Assembly (NCBI GenBank): GCA_963825565.1 | Contig: CAWGTW010000014.1 | Span: 23,408 to 87,407 of the forward strand | Direction: 5' to 3' | Length of the DNA: 64,000 bases | Source: Ilumatobacteraceae bacterium | GTDB taxonomy: Bacteria; Actinomycetota; Acidimicrobiia; Acidimicrobiales; Ilumatobacteraceae | Shown here: positions 3,012 through 49,183 of the stretch, piece by piece | Position numbering within the stretch: the stretch's first letter is position 1 | Layout: each line of letters starts with the position of its first letter | Made by a program: the position numbers and the translations under genes | The notes under the pieces: model-generated | The model's database searches: none | The model's input: only the letters and a program-made list of their open reading frames with translations | What the model was told of the DNA's origin: nothing

Positions 3012-3997
3012 GCCGCAAGCTCGGGTACGTCCAGGCCTTCAACGAGGCCGTGCGCCAGGAGATGCGGGCCGACCCCGACGTCTTCTGCGCCGGCGAGGAC
3101 ATCGGCGCCTTCGGTGGGGTGTTCGGCACCTATGGCGGGCTGCAGAAGGAGTTCGGCACGGGTCGCGTCGTCGACACGCCGATCAGCGAGCAGGCGATCG
3201 TCGGGCTCGGCGTCGGCGCGGCGGTCAGCGGGCTGCGCCCGATCGTCGACATCATGTTCATGGACTTCATCTGCGTCGCCTTCGACCAGATCGTGAACCA
3301 GGCAGCAAAGATCAAGTACATGTTCGGCGGCGCGGCCACGGTCCCGCTGACGATCACGACCGGCGGCGGGGGCGGCCTGTCGGCGGCCGCCCAGCACAGC
3401 CAGTCGCTCGAAGCGCTGCTGTGCCACATCCCCGGCCTGATGGTCGTCCACCCGTCGAACCCGTACGACATGAAGGGATTGATGACCGCTTGCATCCGCG
3501 AGGACAACCCGACGGTGATGATCAAGCACAAGCGCCTGCTCGGGATGCAGGGCGAGGTGCCCGAGGAGCAGTACGTCGTTCCGCTCGGATCGGCCAACGT
3601 CGTGCGCTCCGGCAGCGACGTCACCGTGGTCGCCTGGGGCCGCATGGTCAACGAGGCCGCCGACGCCGCCGAGCGGCTCGCCGCTGACGGCATCGACGTG
3701 GAGGTCATCGACCCCCGGACCCTCCAGCCGCTCGACACCGACACGATCGTCGACTCGGTGCGCAAGACCAACCGGGCGGTCGTCGTCCACGAGGCGGTGC
3801 GCTTCGGTGGGCTCGGCGCCGAGGTGGCCGCACAGATCCAGGAGTACGCCTTCGACCACCTCGATGCGCCGGTCGGCCGGATCGCTGCGCCGTTCTCGCC
3901 GGTCCCGTTCAGCCCGGCGCTCGAACAGCGCTACCTTCCCGACGCCGACCGGATCGCCGCCGGGATCCGCGACACGCTCGCCCGCCCGGGGGCCTGA
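3008..3997 (+). CDS. 2-oxoacid dehydrogenase E1 beta subunit
   Basis: 329 aa. Transketolase-like pyrimidine-binding and C-terminal domains (VVDTPISEQAIVG, QHSQSLEA, IDPRTLQPLD). Confidence 0.9.
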   Translation: MSRKLGYVQAFNEAVRQEMRADPDVFCAGEDIGAFGGVFGTYGGLQKEFGTGRVVDTPISEQAIVGLGVGAAVSGLRPIVDIMFMDFICVAFDQIVNQAAKIKYMFGGAATVPLTITTGGGGGLSAAAQHSQSLEALLCHIPGLMVVHPSNPYDMKGLMTACIREDNPTVMIKHKRLLGMQGEVPEEQYVVPLGSANVVRSGSDVTVVAWGRMVNEAADAAERLAADGIDVEVIDPRTLQPLDTDTIVDSVRKTNRAVVVHEAVRFGGLGAEVAAQIQEYAFDHLDAPVGRIAAPFSPVPFSPALEQRYLPDADRIAAGIRDTLARPGA

Positions 3998-4090
3998 CGA
4001 TCGTGTCGACGGCCGGCGTCATCGCGCTCGCCCTCGACGTGGGCCGGGCGCTCGCGACGGCCGCCACCGACCACCGCTCGTGCGTGGGGG

Positions 4091-5449
4091 ATGGGGCCGA
4101 TGGCGACTGAGTTCCGCATGCCCAAGCTCGGCCTGACGATGGAAGCGGGCACGATCGCCGAGTGGTTGGTCGCCGACGGCGAGGCGGTCGAGGCGGGCAC
4201 GGCGGTCCTGCGGATCGAGACCGACAAGACCGAGACCGACGTCGAGGCCGCCGCGTCCGGACGGCTCCACACCGCCGGTGCGGTCGGGCGCACCTATGCC
4301 TGCGGCGAGCTGATCGGATGGTTCCTGGCCGATGGCGAGGAACCGCCGGCGGTGGCGGACACCACCCGTCCGGCGCCACCGGGTCGCCGGCTCTTCGCCT
4401 CGCCCAACGCCCGCCGGCTCGCCGCCGAGCGCGGACTCGACCTCGGCACGGTCCGCGGGACGGGACCGAACGGGCGCATCGTCTCGGAGGACCTCGACGG
4501 CCTGGCCACCGCGCCGCCTCCCTCGGCGGCAGCACCGACCACGGTGCACCCGGCCGTCGCAGGGTCGCCCGTGCCGGCCACCGCCGCGGCGCGTCAGCTC
4601 GCCGACCTGCTCGGTGTCGACCTGGCGATCGTGGCGGTCGATCCGGTCGACGGCCGCGTGACACGCGAGGCGGTCGCCGTCCACGTGCGCGGGGTGCTGG
4701 CCGCAGCCAGCGGCTCCGACCCGACCGTGCCGACCCGCGACCTGCTCCCCGCCATCCAGGCGCCGACCGAGACCATCGCGTTCACGGGCATGCGGGGCAC
4801 GATCGCCAGGCGGATGCACGAGTCGCTGCAGCAGATGGCTCAGCTCACGCTGTTCATGGACGCCGACCTCGACGCGGTCGTCGCCGATCGCGAGTCCCGC
4901 CAGGTGTCCGGAGCTGCGCCGGGCTACACCGACTACGTGATCGCCGCGGTCGCCCGCGCGCTGGTCGCACATCCGCGGGTCAACTCCCAGGTCACCGACG
5001 ACGGGATCGCGGTCCTGCCCGACGTGCACGTCGGGATGGCCGTCGCGCTGGACGAGGGCCTCGTCGTGCCGGTGGTGCGCGACACCGCCGCACTCGACCT
5101 CGCATCGCTGACCGCCGAGACCTCCCGGCTCGCCGGCGCGGCGCGGAGCGGCTCGCTCGCCTACGCCGACCTCGAGGGCGGTACGTTCTCGGTCAGCACC
5201 CTCGGTATGTTCGACGTCGACGGGTTCACGCCGGTGATCAATCCGCCGAACGCGGCGATCCTCGGCGTCGGCCGGCTGCGCGACGACGTGGTCGTCGGCG
5301 GCGACGGGACCGTGTCGACGGTGACCCGGATCACGCTCAGCCTCACGTGGGACCACCGGGTGTTCGACGGCGCACCCGCCGCCGCGTTCTGCCGGACGGT
5401 GCGCGACCTCCTCCAGCGCCCCGCCGACCTCGACCGGAGGCTGACATGA
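4091..5449 (+). CDS. dihydrolipoamide acyltransferase (E2 component)
   Basis: Lipoyl domain with IETDKTETDVEA, an Ala/Pro linker, a peripheral-subunit-binding segment (ASPNARRLAAERGLDLGTVRGTGPNGRI), and a catalytic domain with DHRVFDG. Alternative start at ATG 4100 (MATEFRMPKLG). Confidence 0.9.
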   Translation: MGPMATEFRMPKLGLTMEAGTIAEWLVADGEAVEAGTAVLRIETDKTETDVEAAASGRLHTAGAVGRTYACGELIGWFLADGEEPPAVADTTRPAPPGRRLFASPNARRLAAERGLDLGTVRGTGPNGRIVSEDLDGLATAPPPSAAAPTTVHPAVAGSPVPATAAARQLADLLGVDLAIVAVDPVDGRVTREAVAVHVRGVLAAASGSDPTVPTRDLLPAIQAPTETIAFTGMRGTIARRMHESLQQMAQLTLFMDADLDAVVADRESRQVSGAAPGYTDYVIAAVARALVAHPRVNSQVTDDGIAVLPDVHVGMAVALDEGLVVPVVRDTAALDLASLTAETSRLAGAARSGSLAYADLEGGTFSVSTLGMFDVDGFTPVINPPNAAILGVGRLRDDVVVGGDGTVSTVTRITLSLTWDHRVFDGAPAAAFCRTVRDLLQRPADLDRRLT

Positions 5450-7059: not shown

Positions 7060-8244
7060 TCACGGCGCCGCGTTCTCGAACAGCGCCGGGAGGTCGTCGT
7101 CGGGCGCGGCGAGCACGCGGTCGAGGAAACGGTGGAAGCGCTGCCCGCCGCCCTCGTTGCGGCCGAACAGGGTGACCGCCTTGCCGCCCGACCGCAGCGC
7201 CCGCTGCACGCGCAGGCCCATCCAGTAATCCTCGTTCTGGACGACGTCGAGGTTGAACTGCATGACCTGCCTGACGGCGTCGGCCTGCGCGCCGTCCGGT
7301 TCCCGGGTGTGCAGGAACAGCTGCACGGTCGTCGATGCCCCCGGCTCGGCGCCGGGCGACAGCATCGACACCATGTACACCCGCCCGTTGGCGTCGAACC
7401 CGGCGACCGAAACGTGGGGGAAGATCGTCCACACCCCGCCGTTCAGCTCCCTGATCCGCCACTCCTCCTCGGGCCGGTCGACCAGCCGCTCAAATCCCTG
7501 GTCGGGCGACGTCACCCGCTGGTGCGGCCCCCACGCGTCGTACATCGACTTGGTCGACATGTCGGGTCCGAACGAGTCACGGTGGAGGATCGGCAGGTGG
7601 TAGAAGTCGAGATACCCGTCGTAGGCGATCTTCCAATTCGGCCCGACCAGCGTCTGGCGGCCGACCGCGTGGCAGTCGGCGAGGCCGAGGTGTTCGAGCA
7701 TCTCGCCGTACCCGCAGAGGAACGTGTCGATGTCGATCGCCGGCTCGCCGGCGAGGTGGATCCACACCAGACCGGCTCGCTCGGCACACGTCAGCGGCGT
7801 CAGCCCGAAGCAGGAGCGGTCGATCTCGCCGAAGTCGTCGGCGTCGAGGACCCCGACGAGCTCGCCACGGTCGTCGTAGCTCCACGCGTGGTACCGGCAG
7901 GTGTGGCGACGGGCCGTCCCGGCGCCCTCCTCGGTGACGATCGCGCCCCGGTGGCTGCACATGTTGTGGAACGCCCGCAGCTCGCCGTCGCCGCCGCGCA
8001 CCACGAGGTACGGCGTGCCGGCGATCTCGCCCGAGACGTACGAGTGCGGTTCGCGCAGCTCGCACGACGCCGCCACGACGAGCGGCACCCGGCGGAAGAC
8101 GCGCTCCATCTCCGTCGCCCAGCGTGCCGGGTCGACGTAGTTCGAGGCCGGCACCTCGACGACGCCGTCGGCCTGGTCCTGCGTGCCGGCGTCCCGATGA
8201 CCCAGGCCGCGCCGGGCGATCGCCACCAGTTGCTCCCTGCTCAT
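7060..8244 (-). CDS. aromatic-ring-hydroxylating (Rieske non-heme iron) oxygenase alpha subunit
   Basis: Rieske ligands CSHRG and CRYHAWSY plus a C-terminal catalytic domain. ATG 8244 (MSREQLV...) is preferred; the longest ORF extends to 8304 through an Arg-rich stretch. There is no adjacent beta subunit or reductase. Confidence 0.8.
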   Translation of the reverse strand: MSREQLVAIARRGLGHRDAGTQDQADGVVEVPASNYVDPARWATEMERVFRRVPLVVAASCELREPHSYVSGEIAGTPYLVVRGGDGELRAFHNMCSHRGAIVTEEGAGTARRHTCRYHAWSYDDRGELVGVLDADDFGEIDRSCFGLTPLTCAERAGLVWIHLAGEPAIDIDTFLCGYGEMLEHLGLADCHAVGRQTLVGPNWKIAYDGYLDFYHLPILHRDSFGPDMSTKSMYDAWGPHQRVTSPDQGFERLVDRPEEEWRIRELNGGVWTIFPHVSVAGFDANGRVYMVSMLSPGAEPGASTTVQLFLHTREPDGAQADAVRQVMQFNLDVVQNEDYWMGLRVQRALRSGGKAVTLFGRNEGGGQRFHRFLDRVLAAPDDDLPALFENAAP

Positions 8245-8295
8245 CGGCAACCAAGGTAACGCCTGGGGCGATCTCCGCTGCGCTCGCAGCTGGGG

Positions 8296-8312
8296 ACTGA
8301 ACACTGTTCAGT
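8296..8312. promoter_or_regulatory. perfect 17-bp palindrome (ACTGAACA-C-TGTTCAGT), candidate TetR-type operator in a divergent promoter region
   Basis: Read directly from the sequence. It lies between the divergent Rieske oxygenase and cleavage-oxygenase genes, and a TetR gene sits immediately downstream of the latter. Confidence 0.35.
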
Positions 8313-8353
8313 TGATGCGCTACGGTGGTACCACCGACCAGGAAGGGCCGCCG

Positions 8354-9742
8354 ATGACCGCAACCGAATCGACCGAGACCACGACCGGCGCGGCGACGCC
8401 CTGGCACCTGCGTGACAACCGGGCGCCGGTGTTCGACGAGGTGACCCTGACCCAACTCGAGGTGCGCGGCGCGATCCCGCCCGAACTCGTCGGCCGGTAC
8501 GTCCGCAACGGTGCCAACCCGCAGACCGGCGAGTCGTCGCACTGGTTCCTCGGCGACGGGATGATCCACGGCATCGAGCTGAACGGCGGCTCGGCCAACT
8601 GGTACAAGAACCGCTACGTGCGCACGCCGTGCTTCGCGAACAAGGGCGTCGAGCGGATGGACATGTACCTCGACACCGAGACGCTGAAGTTCGACTACAC
8701 CGTCGGCGTCGCCAACACCCACGTCATCGGCCATGCCGGTCAGATCCTGGCGCTCGAGGAGGGGTCGTTCCCGTACGTGCTGACCAAGGACCTCGACACC
8801 GTCGGCCCGAGCGACTACGACGGCAAGCTCGTCACGGCGATGACCGCCCACCCCAAGGTCTGCCCCGAGACCGGTGAGCTGCTGTTCTTCGGGTACAGCT
8901 CGCTCCCCCCGTATCTCGTCTACCACCGGGTCAATGCGGCGGGCGAGCTCGTGCAGTCCGAGGAGATCACCGTCACCGGGCCGACGATGATGCACGACTT
9001 CGTCGTGTCCAGGAACCACACGGTGTTCATGGACCTGCCGGCGATCTTCGACATGGAGCTGGCGATGGCGGGCGGGATGCCGATCCGTTGGAGCGACGAC
9101 TACCCGGCGCGCTTCGGCGTGTTGCCGCGCGAGGGGACCAACGCCGATGTGCAGTGGTTCGATGTGGACCCGTGCTACGTGTTCCACACGCTCAACGCCC
9201 ACGACGAGGGTGACGAGGTGGTCGTGCGCGGCTGCCGGCTCAACGAGATCTGGCGCGACAGCGACGACATCGGCAACGCCGACGTCGTCGACGAGAACTC
9301 GATGCCGCACATGTGGGAGTGGCGGTTCAACCGGACCACCGGCTCCTCCACCGAGCGCCAACTCGACGACCGGCCGTCGGAGTTCCCGCGCGTCGCCGAC
9401 GCGATCGTCGGGTTGCCGAATCGGTACGGCTACACGATGTCGACGTCGTTCCTCGACCGGACGGTCGGCGAGATCTTCAAGTACGACCTGGCCAACGGTG
9501 GCTCGCGCACGTCGCACGTGTTCGAGCCGGGGCAGGTTCCGGGCGAGCCGGTGTTCGTTCCGGCCGAGGGCGGCACCAACGAGGACGACGGTTACCTGAT
9601 GACCTACGTCCACGACGAGACGACGAACACCTCGCACCTGACGATCCTCGACGCGTCGAACATGGCGGCCGACCCGGTCGCCGAGGTGCATCTGCCGCGG
9701 CGGATCCCGACCGGCTTCCACGGTAGCTGGATCGCCGACTGA
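8354..9742 (+). CDS. carotenoid oxygenase family protein (carotenoid/lignostilbene-type cleavage dioxygenase)
   Basis: Family-typical His-containing blocks HWFLGDGMIHG, TAHPK, MMHDF, GFHGSW. An AGGAAGG RBS precedes ATG 8354. The longest ORF starts at TTG 8312. Confidence 0.85.
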   Translation: MTATESTETTTGAATPWHLRDNRAPVFDEVTLTQLEVRGAIPPELVGRYVRNGANPQTGESSHWFLGDGMIHGIELNGGSANWYKNRYVRTPCFANKGVERMDMYLDTETLKFDYTVGVANTHVIGHAGQILALEEGSFPYVLTKDLDTVGPSDYDGKLVTAMTAHPKVCPETGELLFFGYSSLPPYLVYHRVNAAGELVQSEEITVTGPTMMHDFVVSRNHTVFMDLPAIFDMELAMAGGMPIRWSDDYPARFGVLPREGTNADVQWFDVDPCYVFHTLNAHDEGDEVVVRGCRLNEIWRDSDDIGNADVVDENSMPHMWEWRFNRTTGSSTERQLDDRPSEFPRVADAIVGLPNRYGYTMSTSFLDRTVGEIFKYDLANGGSRTSHVFEPGQVPGEPVFVPAEGGTNEDDGYLMTYVHDETTNTSHLTILDASNMAADPVAEVHLPRRIPTGFHGSWIAD

Positions 9743-17811: not shown

Positions 17812-19212
17812 GTGACCCGAACCGGCGTCGATGTGGGTGACACCATCCCGACAGCGACCGGCGCGGCGGGAATCCGCGAGCGGCCGCTGGAGTACTTCGA
17901 GCACTGGCGCAGCCAACTCGGCGACCTGTTCGCGATCGACATGGCCGGGCCGCTGCTGTCCAGATCGCCCGACTGCCCCGGCGTCTACGCGGTGTTCGGC
18001 GAGGCTCACCAGCGGGCGGTCCTGAGCGACATCGAACGCTTCGTGCTGCCGGTCTCCGCCGCGGTCCGGCTCGATCTCCCCGAGACGTTGCGCAACCTCA
18101 ACGTCGGTCTCCACAGCAAGCGCGGCCGCACCCACGACGACGAGCGGCGGATGATCGCGTCGGTGCTCGCCGCCATAGACCCACCACGGATCGGTGGCGT
18201 GGCCGCCGAGGTCGCCGCAGTCGTCGCCCGGCACGCGCGCCAGCCGTTGGGCCTGCTCGACCTGATGCGCGGCATGGTCGCATCGCTGTCCGACCGCCTG
18301 TTCTTCGGCGATGCCGCTGACGAGGGCACCACCGAGGCACTGGTGTCGTACTTCCATCTCCGCCGGTCGGCGTCAGCTCCGGGTATGACCCTCGACGATT
18401 CGATGTGGCGCCGACTGGTCGATGCGGGCAACGCTGCCGATGCGGCGTTGCGCAGCTACCGGCGCGAGGTGGTACGTGATCGGTCCGGCCACGACCTGGG
18501 AGGCCTCGCCCCGCTGGCGAACGGGACCGCCGGACCGATCGACGAGGACGCATTCGTCGGCCACGCCAACGTGTTGTTCGTGTCGGCCAACGAACCGATC
18601 GCCGTCGCGCTGACGTGGACGCTGCTCGTCCTGAGTCAGCTGCCGGCGCTTCGACAGGCGCTGCGCGCCGAACTCGCGCAGGCGCGTGTCGCCGGTCCGT
18701 ACCCCGCTTCGCGCGAGCTGCCGACGATGCGGATGGTCGTGAGCGAGTCACTCCGCGTCCTGACCCCCAACGCGTTCATGGTGCGGGTGACATCGGAGCC
18801 GGTGACGCTCGGCGGCCACCTCCTGCCGAGTGGGGCCGAGATCGTCCTCAGCCCGCTCGTCGCCCATCGCGACCCTTCGGTGTTCGCCGATCCGACGCGG
18901 TTCCAGCCGTCGCGTTGGTCACGGATCAGGCCATCGGCGTACTGCTACTTCCCGTTCGGCGCCGGTGGTCACAGCTGCGTCGGGCGGGCGTTGGCGACGG
19001 AGATGATCCACTCGTGCCTGTCCGCGCTCCTCGACCACGGCGACATCGTGCTCACCGTCGATGCCGACGTCGACTGGCGGGTCGACGTGATGCTCACGCC
19101 CACCGTCGATCCTCCGGTCACGATGGTTCGCCGCGAACCGACCGGGGCGGTCGGCGGCGTGCTGCGCGGCGGCGTGACCCGACTCGTCAGGCTCCCCGAC
19201 GAGTGGTCGTGA
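17812..19212 (+). CDS. cytochrome P450 (first gene of the RiPP cluster)
   Basis: 466 aa. Heme-thiolate loop FPFGAGGHSCVGRALA, ExxR (ESLR), and PSRW meander region. Confidence 0.9.
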   Translation: MTRTGVDVGDTIPTATGAAGIRERPLEYFEHWRSQLGDLFAIDMAGPLLSRSPDCPGVYAVFGEAHQRAVLSDIERFVLPVSAAVRLDLPETLRNLNVGLHSKRGRTHDDERRMIASVLAAIDPPRIGGVAAEVAAVVARHARQPLGLLDLMRGMVASLSDRLFFGDAADEGTTEALVSYFHLRRSASAPGMTLDDSMWRRLVDAGNAADAALRSYRREVVRDRSGHDLGGLAPLANGTAGPIDEDAFVGHANVLFVSANEPIAVALTWTLLVLSQLPALRQALRAELAQARVAGPYPASRELPTMRMVVSESLRVLTPNAFMVRVTSEPVTLGGHLLPSGAEIVLSPLVAHRDPSVFADPTRFQPSRWSRIRPSAYCYFPFGAGGHSCVGRALATEMIHSCLSALLDHGDIVLTVDADVDWRVDVMLTPTVDPPVTMVRREPTGAVGGVLRGGVTRLVRLPDEWS

Positions 19213-19248
19213 GACGGACCGAGGCGACGATTGCGACGCACCGCAAAG

Positions 19249-19289
19249 TGTGGTCAGATGGACCACAATCCATGACGTGGAGACCACGT
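19249..19289. promoter_or_regulatory. two adjacent palindromes upstream of the precursor gene: TGTGGTC-agatg-GACCACA (19249-19267) and ACGTGG-aga-CCACGT (19275-19289)
   Basis: Read directly. Both share a GTGG-N-CCAC core and lie 20-60 nt upstream of ATG 19310. They could be an operator pair or an RNA hairpin. Confidence 0.3.
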
Positions 19290-19309
19290 TCCGTCCAGAG
19301 GAGAACCTG

Positions 19310-19564
19310 ATGGCCACTCGGAAAGCCGCTGCGAAGAAGTCCACTGCGAAGAAGCCGGCCGCGAAGAAGCAGGCTGCCGCCCGCCCCGCCGCTCCCGAGA
19401 TCAGCGTGTCGGCGATGATCCCGAAGATGACGGTCTCGATGCCGCTCGACGACAAACGCATCGCCGCCATCCAGCGGTGCATCGCCAAGGGGAACCTGAC
19501 GGTCACGTTCAGCAGGATCGATCTCGCAGCCGGCAAGCTCGGGGACGGTTGGCTGTACGACTGA
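19310..19564 (+). CDS. candidate RiPP precursor peptide (84 aa) ending ...AAGKLGDGWLYD*
   Basis: A GAGGAG RBS lies 8 nt before ATG 19310. It sits between the P450 and the MNIO. Lys/Ala-rich N-terminus, one Cys, and a C-terminal Trp-Leu-Tyr-Asp. The longest ORF starts at GTG 19250. Confidence 0.6.
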   Translation: MATRKAAAKKSTAKKPAAKKQAAARPAAPEISVSAMIPKMTVSMPLDDKRIAAIQRCIAKGNLTVTFSRIDLAAGKLGDGWLYD

Positions 19565-19579
19565 TGGCCGCACCCGTGG

Positions 19580-20461
19580 GTGCCGACGGGCACGCCGTCG
19601 ACGGCGGGGACTGACGTGCGCTTCCTCGACCCCGATGCGACGACGATCCAGATCGGGCTGGCGTACGGGGAACCGGCCCTGCAGTACCTCAACCTCCATC
19701 CCGACGGCGTCGACTACGTCGAGGTGCCGTTCGAGCAACTCCGTCACCGCCCCGGTGTGGCGCGACTGCAAGAGCACATCCCACTCGTCCTGCACTGCGC
19801 CAGCCTGTCGGTCGCAGGGACGGTGCCGCCCGACCCGGCCACCGTGCAGGCGATCGCCGCGACGATCGAGCGGATGCGGTCGCCATGGCTCGGCGAGCAC
19901 CTCGCGTTCATCTCGGCGCACGGGCTCGGGGAAGGTCAAGCCGACGCGATCGAGCTGACCTACACGGTCTCGCCGCAGTTCAGCCACGAATCGGTTGCGC
20001 AGGTCGCTCAGAACGTCGCCGCGATCCGCCCCGCCATCGGCGACGTACCGCTGATCCTGGAGAACACACCGTCGTACGTGACGGTGCCGGGCAGCACGAT
20101 GTCGAGCGCCGAGTACATCGCCGCAGTGCTGCGCGCCTGCGACGTCGGCCTGCTGCTCGATCTGAGCCACTTCCTCATCACCTGCACGAACACCGGCGCC
20201 GATCCCATCGCGGAGCTCTCGAAGATCCCGCTCGATCGAGTCGTCGAGATCCACCTGTCGGGGGTGAACGTCCAGGGGGGCCGGGCGTGGGACGACCATG
20301 CCTCGCCGGTACCCGCTGCAGTGTTCGACCTGCTCCGCATCGTCCTGCGCGAGGCCTCGCCGCGCGCGGTGACCATCGAGTACAACTGGCCGTCCGAAGC
20401 GACCGCATCGGTGATCGACGAGCACGTTCGAGTGGCCACCGAGATGGCGCGCGCGTCATGA
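19580..20461 (+). CDS. DUF692 / multinuclear non-heme iron oxidase (MNIO; MbnB/TglH/ApyH family)
   Basis: Family blocks VDYVEVPFE, PLVLHCASLSVAG, SPWLGEHLAF, PLILENTPSYV, LLLDLSHF, VVEIHLSG, WDDHASPV, TIEYNW. Alternative start at GTG 19616. Confidence 0.85.
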   Translation: MPTGTPSTAGTDVRFLDPDATTIQIGLAYGEPALQYLNLHPDGVDYVEVPFEQLRHRPGVARLQEHIPLVLHCASLSVAGTVPPDPATVQAIAATIERMRSPWLGEHLAFISAHGLGEGQADAIELTYTVSPQFSHESVAQVAQNVAAIRPAIGDVPLILENTPSYVTVPGSTMSSAEYIAAVLRACDVGLLLDLSHFLITCTNTGADPIAELSKIPLDRVVEIHLSGVNVQGGRAWDDHASPVPAAVFDLLRIVLREASPRAVTIEYNWPSEATASVIDEHVRVATEMARAS

Positions 20462-21276
20462 CGCCGGCCCAGGCCCAATCGCTGCTCGCAGCCGGCCTCG
20501 ACGACCCGTGGTTGATCGAGCGGTGGCGGCGCGAACCCGAGCTGCTCGGCCCGCTCGGTGTCGACGATCCCGGCGTCGTCGATCTCGACACCCTGGCCCG
20601 GTTCGCGGGCATGGCGGCGATGGTCAAGCACAATCAGCTGCGCTCGTTCCTGCCGCTGACGTTCCGACTCATGCGTTCGTACGGCGTCGATCTCGAGCTG
20701 TTCACGGCGTACGCCATGACCCGTTCGCGCACGCGCATGGCGTTCGCTCCGTCGGCCGCCGGCAAGGCGGTCGATCTGGTCGAGTTCGCGTCCGGCTGGC
20801 TCGGCCCGGACGACGCCGCGCACGTCGCGGTGCTGGACGCGGCCCGCTACGAGCTGGCGGTCGCCCGCCTCGGGCCTTGGTTCGATGCGGGCCTGCCCGC
20901 AGGGACGGACCCGGTGCGCGACGGTGCGGGCGTGCGCGGCCACATCATCCTGCTCGAGCTCCGGTCCGAACCCGCCACGCTGGCCGACGCGCTCGAATCG
21001 GGCATCGACACCTCGTCGATCGCGCTGTCGCCACGGTCGACGTGCCTGTGGCGCGATCCCGTCGGCCACGTCTCGATCGTGTCCCTCGACCCGCTGCACT
21101 TCGAGGTGCTTGCGTCGATCGCCGACGACCGCCCGTTGCAGCAACTGGTCGACGCGTTGGACGTGGCCGGGGCGGCGGTGGTCGTCGCCGAGGCGGCACG
21201 ACGTCTCGCCGAGGCGGGCGTCGTCTCGACGATCGGCATCGAACGCGTCGAGCGCGAGGCGCTCCTGTGCACCTGA
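20458..21276 (+). CDS. MNIO partner protein with a C-terminal RRE-like winged-helix segment (MbnC/TglI/ApyI-type role)
   Basis: ATG 20458 overlaps the MNIO stop (ATGA). 272 aa. The C-terminus HFEVLASIADDRPLQQLVDAL...AEAARRLAEAGVV resembles PqqD-like peptide-binding domains. Confidence 0.6.
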   Translation: MTPAQAQSLLAAGLDDPWLIERWRREPELLGPLGVDDPGVVDLDTLARFAGMAAMVKHNQLRSFLPLTFRLMRSYGVDLELFTAYAMTRSRTRMAFAPSAAGKAVDLVEFASGWLGPDDAAHVAVLDAARYELAVARLGPWFDAGLPAGTDPVRDGAGVRGHIILLELRSEPATLADALESGIDTSSIALSPRSTCLWRDPVGHVSIVSLDPLHFEVLASIADDRPLQQLVDALDVAGAAVVVAEAARRLAEAGVVSTIGIERVEREALLCT

Positions 21277-23225
21277 CGCTCGTCGACAACATGGTGATGC
21301 CCGGGGAGGGCGACCTCGGGATGCTCGACGTCCACCCGCATCTCGGCCTGCTCTCGCTCGCGGCTGCAGCCGAGGCGAGCGGGCACACCGTCGACATCTA
21401 CGACCCGAAGCGGATGCTGCGGTCGGGGCAACTGCGCTACGACGACGAGCTCTACGACCGGGCGACGGCGGCGATCCTGGCGCGTCATCCCGACGCGGTC
21501 GGGTTCACGACCCTGGGGTGCAGCTTCATGTTCGCCATCAACGTCGCCGCGCTCCTCAAGCGCGCCGAACCGGAGCTGCCGATCCTGCTCGGCGGCCCGC
21601 ACGCGACGATGCTCGATCGCCCCATCCTCGAGCGGTTCGATCAGTTCGACGTCATCGTGCGCCACGAGGCCGACCAGGTCTTCCCCGACGTGCTCGGGGC
21701 ACTCCCCGCCCGGCGCTTCGAGGCCATCGAGGGGCTGAGCTGGCGCGACTCGGGCGGGGAGCTGCGCTTCACCGCCGGCAAGCCGATCGTCACCGACCTC
21801 GACTCCCTGCCGCTGCTGTCCTACGACCACTACCCGATCGCCGACCTCGGCCTCGACCTGTTGCGGATCGAGGCCGGCCGCGGGTGCCCGTTCCGATGCA
21901 CGTTCTGCTCGACCGCAGGATTCTTCCAGCGGAGCTTCCGCCTCAAGTCCCCCGAGCGGCTGGTCACCGAGCTCGAACGGCTGCGGACGCTGTACGGCTA
22001 CTCCGACGTCAAGCTCGATCACGACATGTTCACGGTCAACAAGCGCAAGGTGCTCGACTTCTGTGAAGCGGTCGCCGGACGCGGGTTCCGTTGGCGGGCT
22101 TCGGCACGCGTCGACCGCGTCGACGACGGGCTTCTCGAACGGATGGCCGACGCCGGTTGCGTCGGGCTGTACTTCGGGATCGAGAGCGGGTCGGCGCGGC
22201 TGCAGCAGATCATGAAGAAGGGGCTCGACGTCGATCGCGTCGAGCACACGCTGCAGACGGCCGAGGCGCTGGGGATCGAAACCACCGCATCGTTCATCAC
22301 CGGGTTCCCCAGCGAGGAGCGGCAGGACCAGGATGACACCCTCGACCTCGTCGGCAGGTGCCTCCGTACGACGAGCATCACCCAACTCCACATTCTGCAA
22401 CCAGAGCCCGGCACGCCGATGTACGAGGAGTTCGGGTCGGCCATCGAGTACGACGGCTATTCCAGCCCGTTCAACACGCACCTGCTCACCGACGACGACC
22501 ACCGGCTGGTCACGACCACGCCGTCGATCTTCCAGACCTACTACTTCTATGCGACTGCTTTGCCTCGGTCGGACCACGTGTTCGCCGTCGAGACCGTCGA
22601 GTTGCTGCGCCGGATCGGACCGCGGGTCGCGGCCTACATGCTGCGGGGGTTCGACGGGCGCCTGAGCCGACTGGTGAGCGACCTGCGGACGTTCTGCGCC
22701 GATCGAACAGCCGGTGGGTCGCTGTCGCCGACCGCGTTCGCCGACTTCGTCGCCGACCGGTTCGGCGCGCAGCACCACCTGACCTCACTCGTTCGCCTCG
22801 GGCTGCTGCTCCACGATCCCCGGGTGCCGACGGCGTCGCCGGCGTCCGACGCCTACGATCCGACGACGACCTACGTCCTCGATGCCGACGTGTACATCCT
22901 GACCGAGATGCACGATCCGGAGGTCTGGATGCAGCGCATCGCGGGCAGTGCCGGCAACGCGCTGCTCGACGACGACGGCCACGCCGAGACGAGCCTCGTC
23001 GTGCGGCGCGGGATCCAGCCGCCGTCGGTCCACCGAGTCGATGACGGGGCGGTCGCGGTGCTCGAGCTCTTCGACGAGCCGCGACGACCCGACCAGCTGA
23101 TCGAGCGCCTCGGCCTACCGCCCACGGACGCGATCGCGGTCCACGAGCTCATCGAAGGTCTGGCGCGCTCGACGCTGCTCGTGCCATCGCCCGGCATCGC
23201 GTTCGGCACCGAGGACTCCAGCTGA
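21267..23225 (+). CDS. B12-binding-domain radical SAM enzyme (class B rSAM, probable C-methyltransferase)
   Basis: GTG 21267 overlaps the upstream gene by 10 nt. N-terminal cobalamin-binding-like domain (LGLLSLAAAAEASGHTVDIYD, ILLGGPHAT). CxxxCxxC = GCPFRCTFCS. About 220-aa C-terminal extension. Confidence 0.85.
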   Translation: MHLTLVDNMVMPGEGDLGMLDVHPHLGLLSLAAAAEASGHTVDIYDPKRMLRSGQLRYDDELYDRATAAILARHPDAVGFTTLGCSFMFAINVAALLKRAEPELPILLGGPHATMLDRPILERFDQFDVIVRHEADQVFPDVLGALPARRFEAIEGLSWRDSGGELRFTAGKPIVTDLDSLPLLSYDHYPIADLGLDLLRIEAGRGCPFRCTFCSTAGFFQRSFRLKSPERLVTELERLRTLYGYSDVKLDHDMFTVNKRKVLDFCEAVAGRGFRWRASARVDRVDDGLLERMADAGCVGLYFGIESGSARLQQIMKKGLDVDRVEHTLQTAEALGIETTASFITGFPSEERQDQDDTLDLVGRCLRTTSITQLHILQPEPGTPMYEEFGSAIEYDGYSSPFNTHLLTDDDHRLVTTTPSIFQTYYFYATALPRSDHVFAVETVELLRRIGPRVAAYMLRGFDGRLSRLVSDLRTFCADRTAGGSLSPTAFADFVADRFGAQHHLTSLVRLGLLLHDPRVPTASPASDAYDPTTTYVLDADVYILTEMHDPEVWMQRIAGSAGNALLDDDGHAETSLVVRRGIQPPSVHRVDDGAVAVLELFDEPRRPDQLIERLGLPPTDAIAVHELIEGLARSTLLVPSPGIAFGTEDSS

Positions 23226-23290
23226 CCGACGGGACTGCTCCGTCATGGGGTGCGTTCGACCTCGTCGAGGGGCTGCACCTGGGCCACGCG

Positions 23291-24208
23291 GTGGCCGCGC
23301 TGCACGAGCTCGGAGTGCTCGCCGCGCTCACCCGGCCGCGACGCCCCGCGGAGGTCGCCGCCGAGCTCGCACTCGACCCGGCCATGCTGTCCGGGGTGCT
23401 CGAGTACTGTGCCGCACGTACCGACATCGTCGAACGGGTCGGTACCCGGTTCGCCGCCCGCAACTACGATGCCGCAACCCAGTACCTCCTCGATCTGTAC
23501 GCCGGTGCGTTCGCTCCCAACGCCGTGGAACTCGCTGTGTTGCTGCGCAGCCCGGAGCGCGCGCATGACGCCGTCGATCGATCCCGTCACGCTCGGGCGT
23601 TCGTCCGGGCGCCGGACGGTCCGGAGGGGACACCGGCCGCGCTGCTGGCCCAGCTCGGCGTTCGGCGTGTGCTCGATCTCGGCTGCGGACAGGGTGCTCT
23701 GCTCCGGGCGATGGCCGTCGCCGACGACGAATTCCAGGGATGGGGCATCGACGCGAACCCGACCACCTGCCGCGGTGCCCGGATGGCGATGTGCGATGCC
23801 GGCGTGTCGGGGCGCGTCCGGATCATCCGCGGCGACGGGTTCCGGCCCGAGCGCCACCTGACGACGAAGATGATCGAGTCGATCGAAGCGGTCGTCGCTC
23901 GCGACCTCCTCGACGAGCTCTTCGCTCAGGACGCTACCGCCGCCACCTCATGGCTACGAGGGCTGCGCGCCGAGTTCCCCAGCCGACTGCTGTTGATCGG
24001 GGACTACTACGGCCGGCTCGGCCATCGTCGGGCGCGCGGAGACCGCCGAACACTGCTGCACGACTACGCCCAGGTGATCACCGGGCAGGGTGTCCCCCCG
24101 CCCACCCGCGCCGCCTGGGCTGCGATCTACCGAGACGCCGGAGTCCGCTTGATCCACGTCATGGAGGACCGTTCGACGACCAAGTTCTTGCACCTGCTTC
24201 ATCTCTGA
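23291..24208 (+). CDS. class I SAM-dependent methyltransferase (O-MT-like, N-terminal winged-helix/dimerisation segment)
   Basis: Motif I VLDLGCGQGALL. The N-terminus ...VAALHELGVLAALTRPRRPAEVAAEL is typical of small-molecule MTs. The true start may lie slightly upstream, because the frame is open back to 23222. Confidence 0.8.
   Translation: MAALHELGVLAALTRPRRPAEVAAELALDPAMLSGVLEYCAARTDIVERVGTRFAARNYDAATQYLLDLYAGAFAPNAVELAVLLRSPERAHDAVDRSRHARAFVRAPDGPEGTPAALLAQLGVRRVLDLGCGQGALLRAMAVADDEFQGWGIDANPTTCRGARMAMCDAGVSGRVRIIRGDGFRPERHLTTKMIESIEAVVARDLLDELFAQDATAATSWLRGLRAEFPSRLLLIGDYYGRLGHRRARGDRRTLLHDYAQVITGQGVPPPTRAAWAAIYRDAGVRLIHVMEDRSTTKFLHLLHL

Positions 24209-25732: not shown

Positions 25733-25746
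<14 letters not shown>
24823..25746 (+). CDS. A/V-type ATP synthase subunit C (d-like)
   Basis: 307 aa and helical. Its size and position between the stalk and I subunits fit, and it overlaps both neighbours. The family call is mostly contextual. Confidence 0.55.
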
Positions 25747-27558
<1,812 letters not shown>

Positions 27559-27784: not shown

Positions 27785-28347
27785 CCGCGACGATGAGCGC
27801 CGGCTCCGAGCGGACCGCGGTGGAGCGCACGCTGCAACCCGTGCGCGCAGCCCTCCTCGCCGATGCCGAACGGGAGGCCGCCGAGATCCGGGCGGCCGCA
27901 CGCACGGCGGCCGATGCGCTGATCGCCGAGGCCGAGCGCGAGGTTGCCACGGCCGTCGAGCAGGAGCGAGAGCGAGCACGACGGTCGGCACGCGCCCGCG
28001 CCGACCACAACGCGTCGGACGCCCGCCGCGCCGCCCGCCAGCTCCTGCAGGCTGCCGGCGAGTCCGAGCGCACCCGATTGATCCAAGCACTGCACGCCAC
28101 GATCGGACGCCTCCGCGACGACGACCGGTATCCGCAGCTCGTCGACGCGCTGGAACGGCGGGCGCGAGCGCAACTCGGCGACGGCGCCGACCTCCGACGC
28201 GACCCGGCCGGTCGGGGTGGCATCGTCGGTCGCGCCGGTCCACGAAGCGTCGACTACACCCTCGACGCGCTCGCCGACCGCGCCCTCGCAGCATTGGGGG
28301 AGGAGGTGGCGACGTTGTGCAGCCCGCACCGCAAGCCGGACGCGTGA
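27781..28347 (+). CDS. A/V-type ATP synthase subunit E
   Basis: GTGA-coupled to F. Has an N-terminal long coiled coil (AEREAAEIRAAARTAADALIAEAEREV) and a C-terminal globular part (GRGGIVGRAGPRSVDYTLDAL). Confidence 0.7.
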   Translation: MTATMSAGSERTAVERTLQPVRAALLADAEREAAEIRAAARTAADALIAEAEREVATAVEQERERARRSARARADHNASDARRAARQLLQAAGESERTRLIQALHATIGRLRDDDRYPQLVDALERRARAQLGDGADLRRDPAGRGGIVGRAGPRSVDYTLDALADRALAALGEEVATLCSPHRKPDA

Positions 28348-30050
28348 CGCGCGTCAACGGGCCGGTCGTCCACCTCGCGGGCCTGCCCGATGTCGCGCGG
28401 TTCGAGTTCGTCGAGGTCGGCGATGCCGAGCTACCGGGTGAGGTGGTCATGGTCGACCGAGACGTCGCCGTCGCCCAGCTCTACGAGTACAGCGGTTCGC
28501 TGCGCGTCGGGGAGCCGGCGCGGAGCACCGGGCACCCGCTGTCGATCGAGCTCGGACCGGGGCTGCTCGGCGGCGTCTACGACGGTCTCCTCCGACCGCT
28601 GGCCGGCGCCGACCGGTTCCTCGGGCCGCGCCGTCTCGTCCCTCCGCCGGCGACCGAACACCGCTTCTCACCGATCGCGGCGATCGGGACCGACGTCGGA
28701 CCCGGCCATATCCTCGGCACGATCGACACCGCCGGGAACGTCGAACACCGCGTCCTCGTCCCCCCGGGCCACGGGGGTCGTCTCGACCTCATCGCCGAGC
28801 CCGGGCGCTGTCTCGGCACGGCGACGATCGCCACCATCGACGGGCGCTCCGTCTCGGCCACGACGCACTGGCCGATTCGGCTCCCACGACCAGCCGTCCG
28901 GTACCTCGGCGATGCCGAACCGTTCCACACCGGTCAGCGAGTCCTCGACGGGCTGGTCCCGATCGCCCGCGGCAGCTCGGCGACGGTGATCGGCGGGTTC
29001 GGCGAGGGCAAGACGATGCTGCTCGAACAGGTCGCAAAGTGGGGGGACGCCGACGTCATCATCTACGTCGGATGTGGCGAGCGCGGCAACGAGCTCACCG
29101 ACCTGATCCACGAGCTCACCGAGCTGGTCGACCCGCGGACCGGTGCCCGGCTCATGGAGCGCACGATCATCCTCGCCAACACGTCGAACATGCCGGTCAT
29201 GGCCCGCGAGGCGAGCATCCACACCGCAGCGACGATCGCCGAGTTCTACCGCGACATGGGCCACCACGTCGTCGTCATCGCCGACTCGACCTCGCGGTGG
29301 GCCGAGGCGCAGCGCGAGCTCGCCGGCCGAACCGGAGCAATTCCCGCCGAGGAGGGCTACCCGGCCGATCTGCCCGCAGCCCTCGCCGCGTTCTATCAAC
29401 GCGCCGGTCGGATCACCACCCCTGACGGACGGGACGGCTCGGTCACCATCGTCACCTCGGTCTCGCCGGCCGGAGGCGACCTCACCGAGCCGGTCTCGGC
29501 GCACACGCAACGGTTCGTCCAAGCGGTGTGGACCCTCGACCGCGACCTCGCCTATGCCCGCCACTACCCGGCGGTCAGCTGGCGACAGTCGTCCTCGCGT
29601 GACACCGAGCGGTTGGCACGCTGGTACACGGCTCAGGGCGACCCCGACTGGGCCGTACGCCGCGCCCGGCTCGCCGCCCTGCTGACCGAGGCCGACCGTC
29701 TCCGAACGATCGCCGACCTCGTCGGCGTCACCGCCCTCCCGCCCGACGAACGCATCGTCCTGCTCACCGGCCGGCTGGCACGCCAGGCCGTCCTCCAGCA
29801 GAGCGCGCTGAGCCCCAACGACGCGTCGTGCTCACCGGGCAAGCAGGCCGCGCTGATCGATGCCGTGCTCGCGGTCCACGACGTCGGCCTGCAGCTCATC
29901 GACGACGGCCTCCCGGCCAGCGTCATCGAGACCTACGACTTCGGCCCACTCATCCGCGCCAAGGACGACATCGGCACCGACGACCCTGCCGGCATCCGCC
30001 GGGTCGCAGCCGGCACCATCGACGGGCTGCGCGAGAGCAGGCAGCGATGA
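28317..30050 (+). CDS. A/V-type ATP synthase catalytic subunit A
   Basis: P-loop GGFGEGKTML, GCGERGNE, Walker B VVVIADSTSRWAEA, PAGGDLTEPV. Starts at GTG 28317 within the end of the E gene. Confidence 0.92.
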   Translation: MQPAPQAGRVTRVNGPVVHLAGLPDVARFEFVEVGDAELPGEVVMVDRDVAVAQLYEYSGSLRVGEPARSTGHPLSIELGPGLLGGVYDGLLRPLAGADRFLGPRRLVPPPATEHRFSPIAAIGTDVGPGHILGTIDTAGNVEHRVLVPPGHGGRLDLIAEPGRCLGTATIATIDGRSVSATTHWPIRLPRPAVRYLGDAEPFHTGQRVLDGLVPIARGSSATVIGGFGEGKTMLLEQVAKWGDADVIIYVGCGERGNELTDLIHELTELVDPRTGARLMERTIILANTSNMPVMAREASIHTAATIAEFYRDMGHHVVVIADSTSRWAEAQRELAGRTGAIPAEEGYPADLPAALAAFYQRAGRITTPDGRDGSVTIVTSVSPAGGDLTEPVSAHTQRFVQAVWTLDRDLAYARHYPAVSWRQSSSRDTERLARWYTAQGDPDWAVRRARLAALLTEADRLRTIADLVGVTALPPDERIVLLTGRLARQAVLQQSALSPNDASCSPGKQAALIDAVLAVHDVGLQLIDDGLPASVIETYDFGPLIRAKDDIGTDDPAGIRRVAAGTIDGLRESRQR

Positions 30051-31462: not shown

Positions 31463-32070
31463 ACGGTCAGCACGGAAGCAGCCGGGCCGCTCGGCTCGAG
31501 CTGCGCGGCCGGCTCGACCTCGCCCGCCACGCCACCGAGCTCCTCCAGCTGAAAGAAGAGGCGCTCCGACGCGAACGCGTCCGGCTGGAGGGCCACGCGC
31601 TACGCACCGCGCAGCAATGGAGCGAGCGATGCGAGCGCGCGGGCACCTGGCTGGCTCGCTCGCGGGCGCTGGGGGCCGGAAACGAGCTCGCCGCCCTCGC
31701 CGACCGGCACACCCCGCTGGCCACCATCGACACGCACTGGCGCGACTCGATGGGTGTGGCGTACCCGGGCGAGGTCGTCGTCAACCACCCAGCGACCCCC
31801 TCGTTCACGACCACCGCCGCGCTCGCCCCGACCGCCGAGGCGTACCGGCACGCACTCGAGGCCGGAGCGCACCAAGCCGCGGCGTCCGCCGCACTCCAAC
31901 GCGTCACCGCCGAGCTGATGGCGACACGACGCCGACGCCGAGCGATCGAGCACCGCCTCCTGCCCCTCCTCGAGGAGCGGGTCAGCGTTCTCGAACTCCG
32001 CCTCGACGAGGACGACCGAGCCCAGGCGCTGCGGTCGCGCCTGGCGATACGATCGAGGAGCGGGCCATGA
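31459..32070 (+). CDS. A/V-type ATP synthase subunit D (central stalk)
   Basis: ATGA-coupled. 203 aa. N-terminus RLELRGRLDLARHATELLQLKEEALRRE and C-terminal helix RRRRAIEHRLLPLLEE. Confidence 0.8.
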   Translation: MNGQHGSSRAARLELRGRLDLARHATELLQLKEEALRRERVRLEGHALRTAQQWSERCERAGTWLARSRALGAGNELAALADRHTPLATIDTHWRDSMGVAYPGEVVVNHPATPSFTTTAALAPTAEAYRHALEAGAHQAAASAALQRVTAELMATRRRRRAIEHRLLPLLEERVSVLELRLDEDDRAQALRSRLAIRSRSGP

Positions 32071-34455: not shown

Positions 34456-34555
34456 CGGTCCACACCCGCTCGGCATCGTTCGGGGCAGGGCCGTGGACGA
34501 ATGACCCTTGGCAGCGCCGTGGCGACCGGGCGAGGGTGGGATCGGAGGTGTTGCG

Positions 34556-35050
34556 ATGTCGCCGGGCACGACCACGATCAAGCTGCCGGGGACCCCGAAA
34601 CCCTGGATGAACTCGGCGATGATGACCATGCTGAGGACCCCCGGCCTGCGGTCGGTGCTCGGCAAGTCGTTGATGATCCTCAGCGTCACCGGCGCCACGA
34701 CCGGGAAGCGGTACACCATGCCGGTCCAATACGTCCGCGACGGCGATCGCCTGCTCGTGCTCTCGCAACGGACGAGGCGATGGTGGAGGAACCTCACTGC
34801 CCGGCCCGAGGTCGAGGTCGTGCTTCGTGGCGAGACGATCCGGGCCGACGCCCGGCTCGCCAGCGACCAGGAGGCCAGGAGGGCGATCGCCACCAGCCTG
34901 CGCCGCAACCCGCGGACCGCCAAGTTCTACGGCATCGCCATCGGGCGCGATGGTGAGCCGGCCGCCGACGGCGTCGAACAGCTGGACGCCGCGTTCGTGG
35001 TGATCGTCATCGACGCTGCGGCGCAGCAACCGTCAACCGGGGCGGGTTGA
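34556..35050 (+). CDS. nitroreductase-family deazaflavin (F420)-dependent oxidoreductase-like protein (DUF385)
   Basis: From ATG 34556. LILSVTGATTGKRYTMPVQYVRDGDRLLVLS...WWRNLTARPEVEVVLRGE pattern. Confidence 0.6.
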   Translation: MSPGTTTIKLPGTPKPWMNSAMMTMLRTPGLRSVLGKSLMILSVTGATTGKRYTMPVQYVRDGDRLLVLSQRTRRWWRNLTARPEVEVVLRGETIRADARLASDQEARRAIATSLRRNPRTAKFYGIAIGRDGEPAADGVEQLDAAFVVIVIDAAAQQPSTGAG

Positions 35051-47987: not shown

Positions 47988-47998
47988 GATCGGTCTCC

Positions 47999-48976: not shown

Positions 48977-49183
48977 CTCTGCCCCTTTCGGCTCGATGTC
49001 TCCCCTGGCCCTCATTGCCCCCGCCCACCCCGAATGGCGAACCCCTTCCTACACACTCTGCGCGCCCGTCGGCGAAGCGAACGACGACCACCAGCCGGGC
49101 GGTTTCTTTCGACCGAGGCGCACGTTTGATCTAGGGTGCGCGGGATCGGCCGCCACTTCGGCTCCGGGGCGAGGAGGAAGAAC

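Follow-up and report, generated by a model that had tools for sequence, protein, structure and literature searches.

What do the six tightly packed genes at positions 17812-24208 of a 64,000-nucleotide stretch of contig CAWGTW010000014.1 encode, and what could they make? In the following, 'the window' means this whole stretch at its full length. An earlier annotation (hereafter the original prediction) had read the genes as a cluster for a peptide made on ribosomes and modified after translation (RiPP) of the aminopyruvatide (apy) kind. Our analysis agrees with it: we put at about 85% the probability that 17812-24208 holds an aminopyruvatide-family RiPP cluster that is complete, its six genes being ordered apyO-A-H-I-D-S. 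The apy cluster of Burkholderia thailandensis E264 has this gene order, and the functions of its enzymes were established by experiment; their order and the requirement for a Cys in the leader are given in the same paper (Nguyen et al., ACS Cent Sci 2024, PMC11117315). There, ApyO makes a Tyr-Tyr biaryl link, ApyD β-methylates the penultimate Tyr, ApyHI turns the C-terminal Asp into aminopyruvate, and ApyS methylates the β-carbon of the resulting keto acid (PMC11117315). The functions given in the original prediction, the Tyr/Tyr pair included, were accurate.

Six genes of the aminopyruvatide family

The region holds six co-directional open reading frames (ORFs) with short or overlapping junctions. 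Scores are given with the cut-off of the respective NCBIfam model:

17812..19212, + strand: apyO-like cytochrome P450, 466 amino acids (Pfam p450, 6e-32; NF050147, 478.6 bits, cut-off 525, 1.6e-143, full length)
19310..19564, + strand: apyA-like precursor peptide, 84 amino acids (BLASTP against ApyA; NF050146, 85.6 bits, cut-off 47, 2.2e-24)
19616..20461, + strand: apyH-like MNIO (multinuclear non-heme iron oxidase, DUF692), 281 amino acids (PF05114, MbnB/TglH/ChrH type, 4.4e-45; NF050151, 393.3 bits, cut-off 400, that is 6.7 bits under, 5e-118)
20458..21276, + strand: apyI-like MNIO partner, 272 amino acids (BLASTP against ApyI; NF050149, 182.9 bits, cut-off 200, 6e-54; AlphaFold2/Foldseek)
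21267..23225, + strand: apyD-like B12-binding radical SAM C-methyltransferase, 652 amino acids (Pfam; NF050148, 958.9 bits, cut-off 750, 1.2e-288)
23291..24208, + strand: apyS-like SAM-dependent methyltransferase, 305 amino acids (NF050150, 408.8 bits, cut-off 400, 1.6e-122)

The elements on which the original prediction was built were found in place: six genes in 6.4 kb, the heme loop FPFGAGGHSCVG of the P450, an 84-residue peptide closing with GDGWLYD, the DUF692/MNIO motifs EHLAF, ILENTPSY, EIHLSG, WDDH and TIEYNW, a partner gene whose ATG overlaps the MNIO stop codon as ATGA, a B12-binding radical SAM enzyme with CPFRCTFC, whose gene, with its GTG start at 21267, shares 10 nucleotides with the end of the partner gene, and the methyltransferase motif VLDLGCGQG. 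Pfam returned no match for the small ORF or the partner protein, and weak methyltransferase matches for the last gene. In NCBIfam release 20, each of the six Apy proteins has a curated equivalog model of its own, and the six proteins of the window match theirs end to end, far above chance expectation (E = 2e-24 to 1e-288). BLASTP, curated hidden Markov models and synteny together support the apy assignment gene by gene. Each of the six genes is a full-length orthologue with intact catalytic residues, and the cluster reads as a diverged but unmistakable member of the apy family.

We scanned species-representative genomes, a collection that does not include the window's own species, with an alignment of ApyH-type proteins and obtained 50 loci. 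About 35 of the 50 show the full O-A-H-I-D-S arrangement, and they come from several phyla, with hosts among Lysobacterales, Acidobacteriota, Nitrospira, Burkholderiales, Acidimicrobiales, Microlunatus, Kitasatospora and others. In the published family, the ApyH-type MNIO is present in 100% of the clusters, ApyD in 97%, ApyS in 93% and ApyO in 74%.

No protease, transporter or paralogue lies inside the six-gene cluster, which bears out the original prediction on the missing leader protease and exporter, and no second precursor or paralogue was found across the whole window. The same prediction had described the flanks correctly, with a flavin adenine dinucleotide (FAD)/amine-oxidase-type oxidoreductase upstream and a V/A-type ATPase operon downstream. 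We considered the upstream FAD oxidoreductase as a possible cluster member and rejected it, as it is conserved in no related locus. When we looked for a conserved seventh gene (a protease or transporter) in the 5-kb flanks of the 50 loci, we found none beyond the synteny shared by close Lysobacteraceae. According to these results, the six genes are the whole unit, and the absence of a protease and a transporter is a property of the family.

The precursor peptide

The precursor most likely starts at ATG 19310, which is preceded by a GAGGAG Shine-Dalgarno sequence 7 nucleotides upstream. The peptide shows 52% identity with ApyA across the C-terminal 54 residues (BLASTP, 4e-25), and it also scores 78.1 bits on NF050152, whose cut-off is 40. 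Its N-terminus is rich in Lys and Ala; a conserved leader region follows, with Cys57 in CIAKG (codon 19478-19480), and the last ten residues are G75-K-L-G-D-G-W81-L-Y83-D84. The distance of the Cys from the C-terminus, 28 residues, is that of ApyA and most homologues, a basic residue is kept at position -9 (Lys), and the terminal Asp is kept too. CIAKG fits the central C-B-X2-3-G motif of apy precursors, and D84 their C-terminal Asp. The precursor retains every recognised determinant.

The survey also allowed us to ask how typical this tail is. In all 35 loci that have a P450 and a detectable precursor ORF, the small frame before the MNIO gene closes with [WY]x[YW]D, so the aromatic-x-aromatic-Asp ending to which the original prediction had pointed is conserved in homologous clusters. 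The 13 P450-less loci with a detectable ORF carry aliphatic residues followed by Asp. Taking the 35 loci, the window and ApyA together, WLYD is the commonest type (23 of 37 aromatic-type tails), which makes the window peptide the typical form and the YLYD of ApyA a minority form. Nearly all 37 aromatic-type precursors have the Cys at -28, and position -9 is Arg in 23 of them and Lys in 12.

None of this makes the locus new. The 2024 paper had already described apy clusters from Actinomycetota as well as the variation between Trp and Tyr at positions -2 and -4 (PMC11117315), and a 2026 preprint counted 26 WxY precursors among 53, 23 of them WLY, and characterised the cross-link of GWLYD (PMC13192836). 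Hence, the novelty implied in the original prediction does not hold. The locus is a known system rightly identified, and its WLYD tail is no novelty. The exact peptide of the window is absent from the supplements of the 2024 paper and the 2026 preprint.

The MNIO enzyme and its partner

For the MNIO, GTG 19616 (281 residues) is most likely the true start rather than GTG 19580 (293 residues), because genes called independently in other assemblies begin there and the N-terminus of ApyH matches it; an exact look-up of the 293-residue version found nothing, as the called gene starts at 19616. The protein is 52% identical to ApyH over its full length (BLASTP, 1e-99). The iron ligands of TglH are H71, H107, E151, D184, H216 and E258, with N187, D229 and H231 for the third iron (PMC10880893). 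The equivalent residues in the window, in the same order and counted from 19580, are H72, H107, E161, D194, H225 and E267, and H197, D238 and H240. The ligand positions of the DUF692 frame, to which the original prediction had drawn attention, are therefore kept. In 50 of 50 apy-type MNIOs, no variation occurs at the equivalents of TglH H71, H107, E151, D184, H216, E258, D229 and H231, and Asn187, a ligand of the third iron, is replaced by His in all 50 (His197 in the window, 20168-20170). This change may be related to Asp-directed as opposed to Cys-directed chemistry.

One could argue that the resemblance to apy is superficial and that the MNIO pathway here is another one, which modifies Cys as in methanobactin, bufferin or pearlin biosynthesis: the precursor has a single conserved Cys, and the MNIOs characterised before ApyH all act on Cys. 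However, the MNIO scores 393 bits on the ApyH model, compared with 126 on BufB, 92 on HvfB, 19 on ChrH and 16 on MbnB, the precursor lies above the ApyA equivalog cut-off, and the Cys of the apy system is required yet is not the site of modification. We consider this alternative extremely improbable and retain the assignment of the MNIO to the apy family.

The partner protein is 32% identical to ApyI over its full length (BLASTP, 1e-34). Its AlphaFold2 model (predicted local distance difference test 93.7, predicted template modelling score 0.88, from an alignment of 65 sequences) shows an N-terminal helical domain followed by a module of three strands and three helices, and this C-terminal domain is predicted to be a winged helix of the RiPP recognition element (RRE) type. 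With Foldseek, the only significant matches in the PDB were TglI (8hi7_A, 5e-05) and NGO1945 (3dee, 6e-03), both of them MNIO partners. Besides, a profile of the partner family gave a weak match to PqqD at the C-terminal module (E 0.043), and the C-terminus a weak NGO1945_C signal as well. An exhaustive HMMER search with the partner, the source of the 65-sequence alignment, found 168 family representatives among 1.84 billion proteins; a word-indexed protein search returned only the partner itself.

The radical SAM enzyme and the methyltransferase

The radical SAM protein matches the Pfam families B12-binding (8e-15) and Radical_SAM (2e-20), and its C209-x3-C213-x2-C216 motif and its GGPH are invariant in 46 members. 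Its last 150 residues and the C-terminal half of ApyI prove homologous by hhalign (probability 91%, E 1e-6), which fits the published statement that ApyI and ApyD both carry an RRE. The enzyme thus appears to carry a C-terminal domain that would bind the leader of the peptide. A profile of the ApyD C-terminus gave no significant match among PDB sequences. As a separate observation, a Pyrinomonadaceae locus (L021:7853-10630) contains a 926-residue frame of the length of an ApyI-ApyD fusion. Given the crude ORF extraction, the two genes may really be fused there, or else the frame is an artefact of a frameshift or of the assembly.

Regarding the methyltransferase, the core of the SAM-binding loop, D129-x-G131-C132-G133, is invariant in 37 members. 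Its second-best family is 2-ketoarginine methyltransferase (3e-12), an enzyme that methylates an α-keto acid, and this is consistent with β-carbon methylation by ApyS.

The P450 and the predicted cross-link

The heme ligand Cys389 and the E312-x-x-R315 motif of the P450 are invariant across 33 family members. Its I-helix contains Glu261-Pro262 (18592-18597), and Glu-Pro is invariant in 33 of 33 apy-type P450s. This pair stands in place of the acid-Thr pair that is usual in most P450 I-helices and is a peculiarity of the whole family. The window P450 is 50-52% identical to its Lysobacteraceae orthologues and about 40% identical to the one Burkholderiaceae orthologue with which it was compared. 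It has Arg24 (17881-17883) at the equivalent of ApyO Glu20, and the Arg of GGVTRLVRL (~19165-19167) at the equivalent of ApyO Asp459; both assignments rest on an ApyO sequence recovered by optical character recognition, so the numbering is approximate. In the Glu20-equivalent column, every other family member has E, D, N or Q, and the window alone has Arg.

ApyO acting on GWLYD forms a link from Trp N1 to Tyr Cε2 (PMC13192836). By analogy, the bond made by the window P450 would most likely join N1 of Trp81 to Cε2 of Tyr83. The original prediction of a Trp-Tyr cross-linked variant stands as regards the WLYD tail, but the bond is most likely C-N rather than a C-C biaryl. The literature searched contains no native WLY-type cluster with a characterised product or P450.

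This gap leaves room for a rival in which the pathway is the same and the native P450 makes another Trp-Tyr link, for example a C-C biaryl between an indole carbon and Tyr Cε. The type of bond made by ApyO shifts with the substrate, with C-C or C-O products from L7Y/L7W variants, and the low identity to the Burkholderiaceae orthologue, the unique Arg at the Glu20 equivalent and the Arg at the Asp459 equivalent all speak for such a shift. On the other side, the N-C link is the sole experimental datum for a GWLYD substrate, and the heme loop, the ExxR motif and the Glu-Pro of the I-helix are invariant in W-type and Y-type clusters alike, which argues for a shared mechanism. We hold a different link to be rather unlikely, and Trp81 N1 to Tyr83 Cε2 remains our preferred bond.

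The proposed pathway and its product

Putting these assignments together, the radical SAM enzyme would first methylate Cβ of Tyr83, reaching the peptide through its C-terminal leader-binding domain. The P450 would then cross-link Trp81 and Tyr83 oxidatively across Leu82, with a loss of 2 Da. The ApyI-like partner, with its RRE-type domain, would hold the ApyH-like MNIO on the leader, and the MNIO, which would need the leader Cys57, would oxidise and decarboxylate Asp84 to aminopyruvic acid. With methylation of the β-carbon by the methyltransferase, the C-terminus would become 3-amino-2-oxobutanoate. A protease, probably encoded elsewhere, would free a small macrocycle, whose α-keto-acid warhead would inhibit papain-type cysteine proteases. 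In the model system, desmethylaminopyruvatide inhibits papain and cathepsins L and B at 0.3-0.6 nM (PMC13192836), and a cysteine-protease inhibitor is, by analogy, the likely product here, because the desmethyl product of the model system acts on these same proteases.

Several points weigh against this reading of the cluster. ApyO, ApyH and ApyI fall just under their equivalog cut-offs (478.6/525, 393.3/400 and 182.9/200), so this copy has diverged, and we infer that its enzymes are isofunctional rather than hold this as certified by the models. An AlphaFold3 model surrounds the essential basic residue of the substrate with three acidic positions, two of which are Arg in the window P450, and the substrate may therefore dock differently in it. 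The C-N link was shown for the Burkholderia P450 on an engineered substrate (ApyA-Y6W) only. Simple scans revealed no promoter or terminator. Finally, the pathway chemistry proposed here is transferred by orthology from PMC11117315. Folding of the intergenic regions next to the leader was no better than that of shuffled sequence, and scans of the window with Rfam and for tRNA genes came back empty.

The aminopyruvatides, known as a RiPP class only since 2024, are peptides in which three metalloenzymes build a product with a sub-nanomolar α-keto-acid warhead against papain-family proteases. The cluster opens no new question and overturns nothing, and any pipeline that uses NCBIfam would label three of the six genes as Apy. 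It is a divergent, probably actinobacterial copy that could be useful for probing the native linkage of a WLY-type P450 and the recognition of a Lys-type substrate, and also for enzyme and substrate diversification.

Phylogeny, host and possible horizontal transfer

What is mildly new is the deep-branching divergence of this cluster, together with its grouping with Lysobacterales despite flanks that look like Acidimicrobiia. At 90% identity the window proteins are singletons, and among 5.8 billion protein clusters no other MNIO exceeds ~57-62% identity. In neighbour-joining trees of ApyD and ApyH, the window forms a long sister branch to the Lysobacterales clusters, outside the Acidimicrobiales/Microlunatus clade and the Kitasatospora clade. 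The bipartition of window plus Lysobacterales received a bootstrap of 197/200 with ApyH and ApyD, and of 200/200 with four proteins.

The flanks point to a different origin. The A subunit of the adjacent V/A-ATPase is 69-70% identical to proteins named Acidimicrobiia bacterium. Searches of plasmid sequences by tblastn, which are weak taxonomic evidence, gave Streptomyces as the best matches for a sugar decarboxylase (56%) and mixed phyla for an E1-beta subunit. A gene for an F420H2-dependent quinone reductase family protein (34508-35050) fits an actinobacterial host. By its flanking genes, the host is probably an uncultured, Acidimicrobiia-like member of the Actinomycetota, and the label 'actinobacterial' in the original prediction is supported, not conclusively, by the ATPase A subunit, the F420H2 reductase and the decarboxylase. 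The GC content at third codon positions is 0.83-0.91 in the cluster genes and 0.91 ± 0.03 in 22 other genes, and composition is nearly uniform across both cluster junctions. Lysobacterales grouping and Acidimicrobiia-like flanks together suggest a transfer between phyla, and a move of the whole cluster is the simplest reading.

Such discordance between cluster and flanks could also come from an assembly or binning chimera, in which an apy cluster of Lysobacterales had been joined to a contig of an actinobacterium. However, an independent Logan assembly (ERR15459714, 8.8 kb) reproduces both junctions, containing the tail of the upstream gene, the six cluster genes and, with identical products, the ATPase operon's first three genes. 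With just 50-63% identity to the copies in Lysobacterales, the cluster is no recent contaminant, and the near-uniform composition over the junctions also speaks against a splice. Look-ups of the precursor, the partner and one ATPase gene found two short Logan contigs, in which gene calls and junctions were confirmed. A chimera is very improbable, and we keep to the transfer of a whole cluster.

A transferred cluster could, in turn, be a silent or decaying relic that makes no product in its host. The cluster sides with Lysobacterales amid genes that look actinobacterial, its third-position GC content is slightly lower than that of its neighbours, the simple scans detected no promoter, and the model apy cluster is itself silent under laboratory conditions. 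Against decay, the six frames are intact and their translational coupling is kept (the ATGA and the 10-nucleotide overlap), every catalytic residue checked is conserved, the precursor and the partner are identical in assemblies of two independent read sets, and a long branch with fully conserved functional sites suggests purifying selection. We regard a relic as quite improbable and a working apy cluster as the better account.

An extension of the transfer reading is that the cluster moved between Lysobacterales-like Gammaproteobacteria and an uncultured Acidimicrobiia-like actinobacterium, and that its diverged P450, with two of the three putative substrate-clamping acidic residues lost, may bind its Lys-type substrate in another way and form another Trp-Tyr linkage or an atropisomer. 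We regard this combination as unlikely. If true, it would provide a new macrocyclic scaffold for a cysteine-protease inhibitor.

Neighbouring genes in the window

The ATPase operon begins 156 nucleotides past the methyltransferase gene:

24365 to ~32100: V/A-type ATPase operon
25733-27085: V/A-ATPase I subunit
28317-30050: V/A-ATPase A subunit
near 31500-32070: V/A-ATPase D subunit

Two large S8 subtilases are encoded 25-31 kb downstream of the cluster, at 49136-54616 (1826 residues, with PA, fn3 and Big_12 domains) and at 55113-57905 (930 residues); nothing ties them to leader removal. Elsewhere in the window lie two sets of 2-oxoacid dehydrogenase E1 alpha/beta genes, at 2031-5449 (followed by an E2 gene) and at 46965-49015 (- strand), a Rieske oxygenase gene (7060-8304) and a carotenoid-oxygenase (RPE65) gene (8312-9742). 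The frame at 41326-43308 (- strand) encodes 660 residues whose N-terminus matches the 4-TMS holin superfamily IV domain, the remainder having no Pfam match.

Comparison with known systems

TglHI (the pearlin, or 3-thiaglutamate, system), MbnBC and the NGO1945/DUF2063 pairs share with the window the TIM barrel and the iron-ligand set of the MNIO, and the window partner has the same predicted two-domain fold as TglI and NGO1945. The substrate residue sets them apart, being Cys in TglHI-type systems and the C-terminal Asp in apy. So does the third iron, for which TglH uses Asn187 and the whole apy clade has His, and the similarity between the window MNIO and TglH is low (E 1e-17).

With biarylitides and related P450-cross-linked RiPPs, apy has in common an i/i+2 coupling of aromatic residues in a short C-terminal motif, for which a short peptide suffices. 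Unlike them, the apy precursor has a long leader recognised by RRE domains, and the P450 is accessory (26% of apy clusters lack it), the class-defining step being the MNIO reaction. The biarylitide class was considered for the window and rejected, as the 84-residue precursor with its conserved leader, from a family in which the P450 is dispensable, stands against a minimal pentapeptide in a class that the P450 alone defines.

The apy cluster of B. thailandensis has the same six families as the window, in the same order and with the same translational coupling of H and I, and neither cluster encodes a protease or transporter. ApyA and the window precursor share the Cys at -28, Gly at -10, a basic residue at -9, Tyr at -2 and Asp at -1. 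They differ at -4, with Trp in the window and Tyr in ApyA, and at -9, with Lys in the window and Arg in ApyA, where an R1K variant gave ~8% conversion with ApyO. The window leader has an extra Lys/Ala-rich N-terminus of ~18 residues relative to ApyA. From ApyA, in which Glu stands before the Gly where the window has Asp, GWLYD was released with GluC; in E. coli, ApyHI was inactive. Among the proteins compared directly (ApyI, ApyA and ApyH), identity is 32-52%. The hosts differ as well, a Burkholderia for the model system and probably an Acidimicrobiia-like actinobacterium for the window.

The nearest relatives for all six proteins are the WLY-type clusters of Lysobacterales (for example in Dyella tabacisoli, Tahibacter soli and metagenome-assembled genomes of Lysobacteraceae; L001-L011 and L044), with identities of 47-52% for the P450, 57-69% for the precursor, 54-59% for the MNIO, 37-42% for the partner, 60-63% over the full length for the radical SAM enzyme, and 51-62% for the methyltransferase. 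Their tails are mostly G-K-L-G-x-x-W-L-Y-D, with Arg at -9 in L010, L011 and L044, and YIYD in L010 and L044. The window stands apart from them by its genomic context, probably by its phylum, and by the unique Arg substitutions in the N- and C-terminal segments of its P450.

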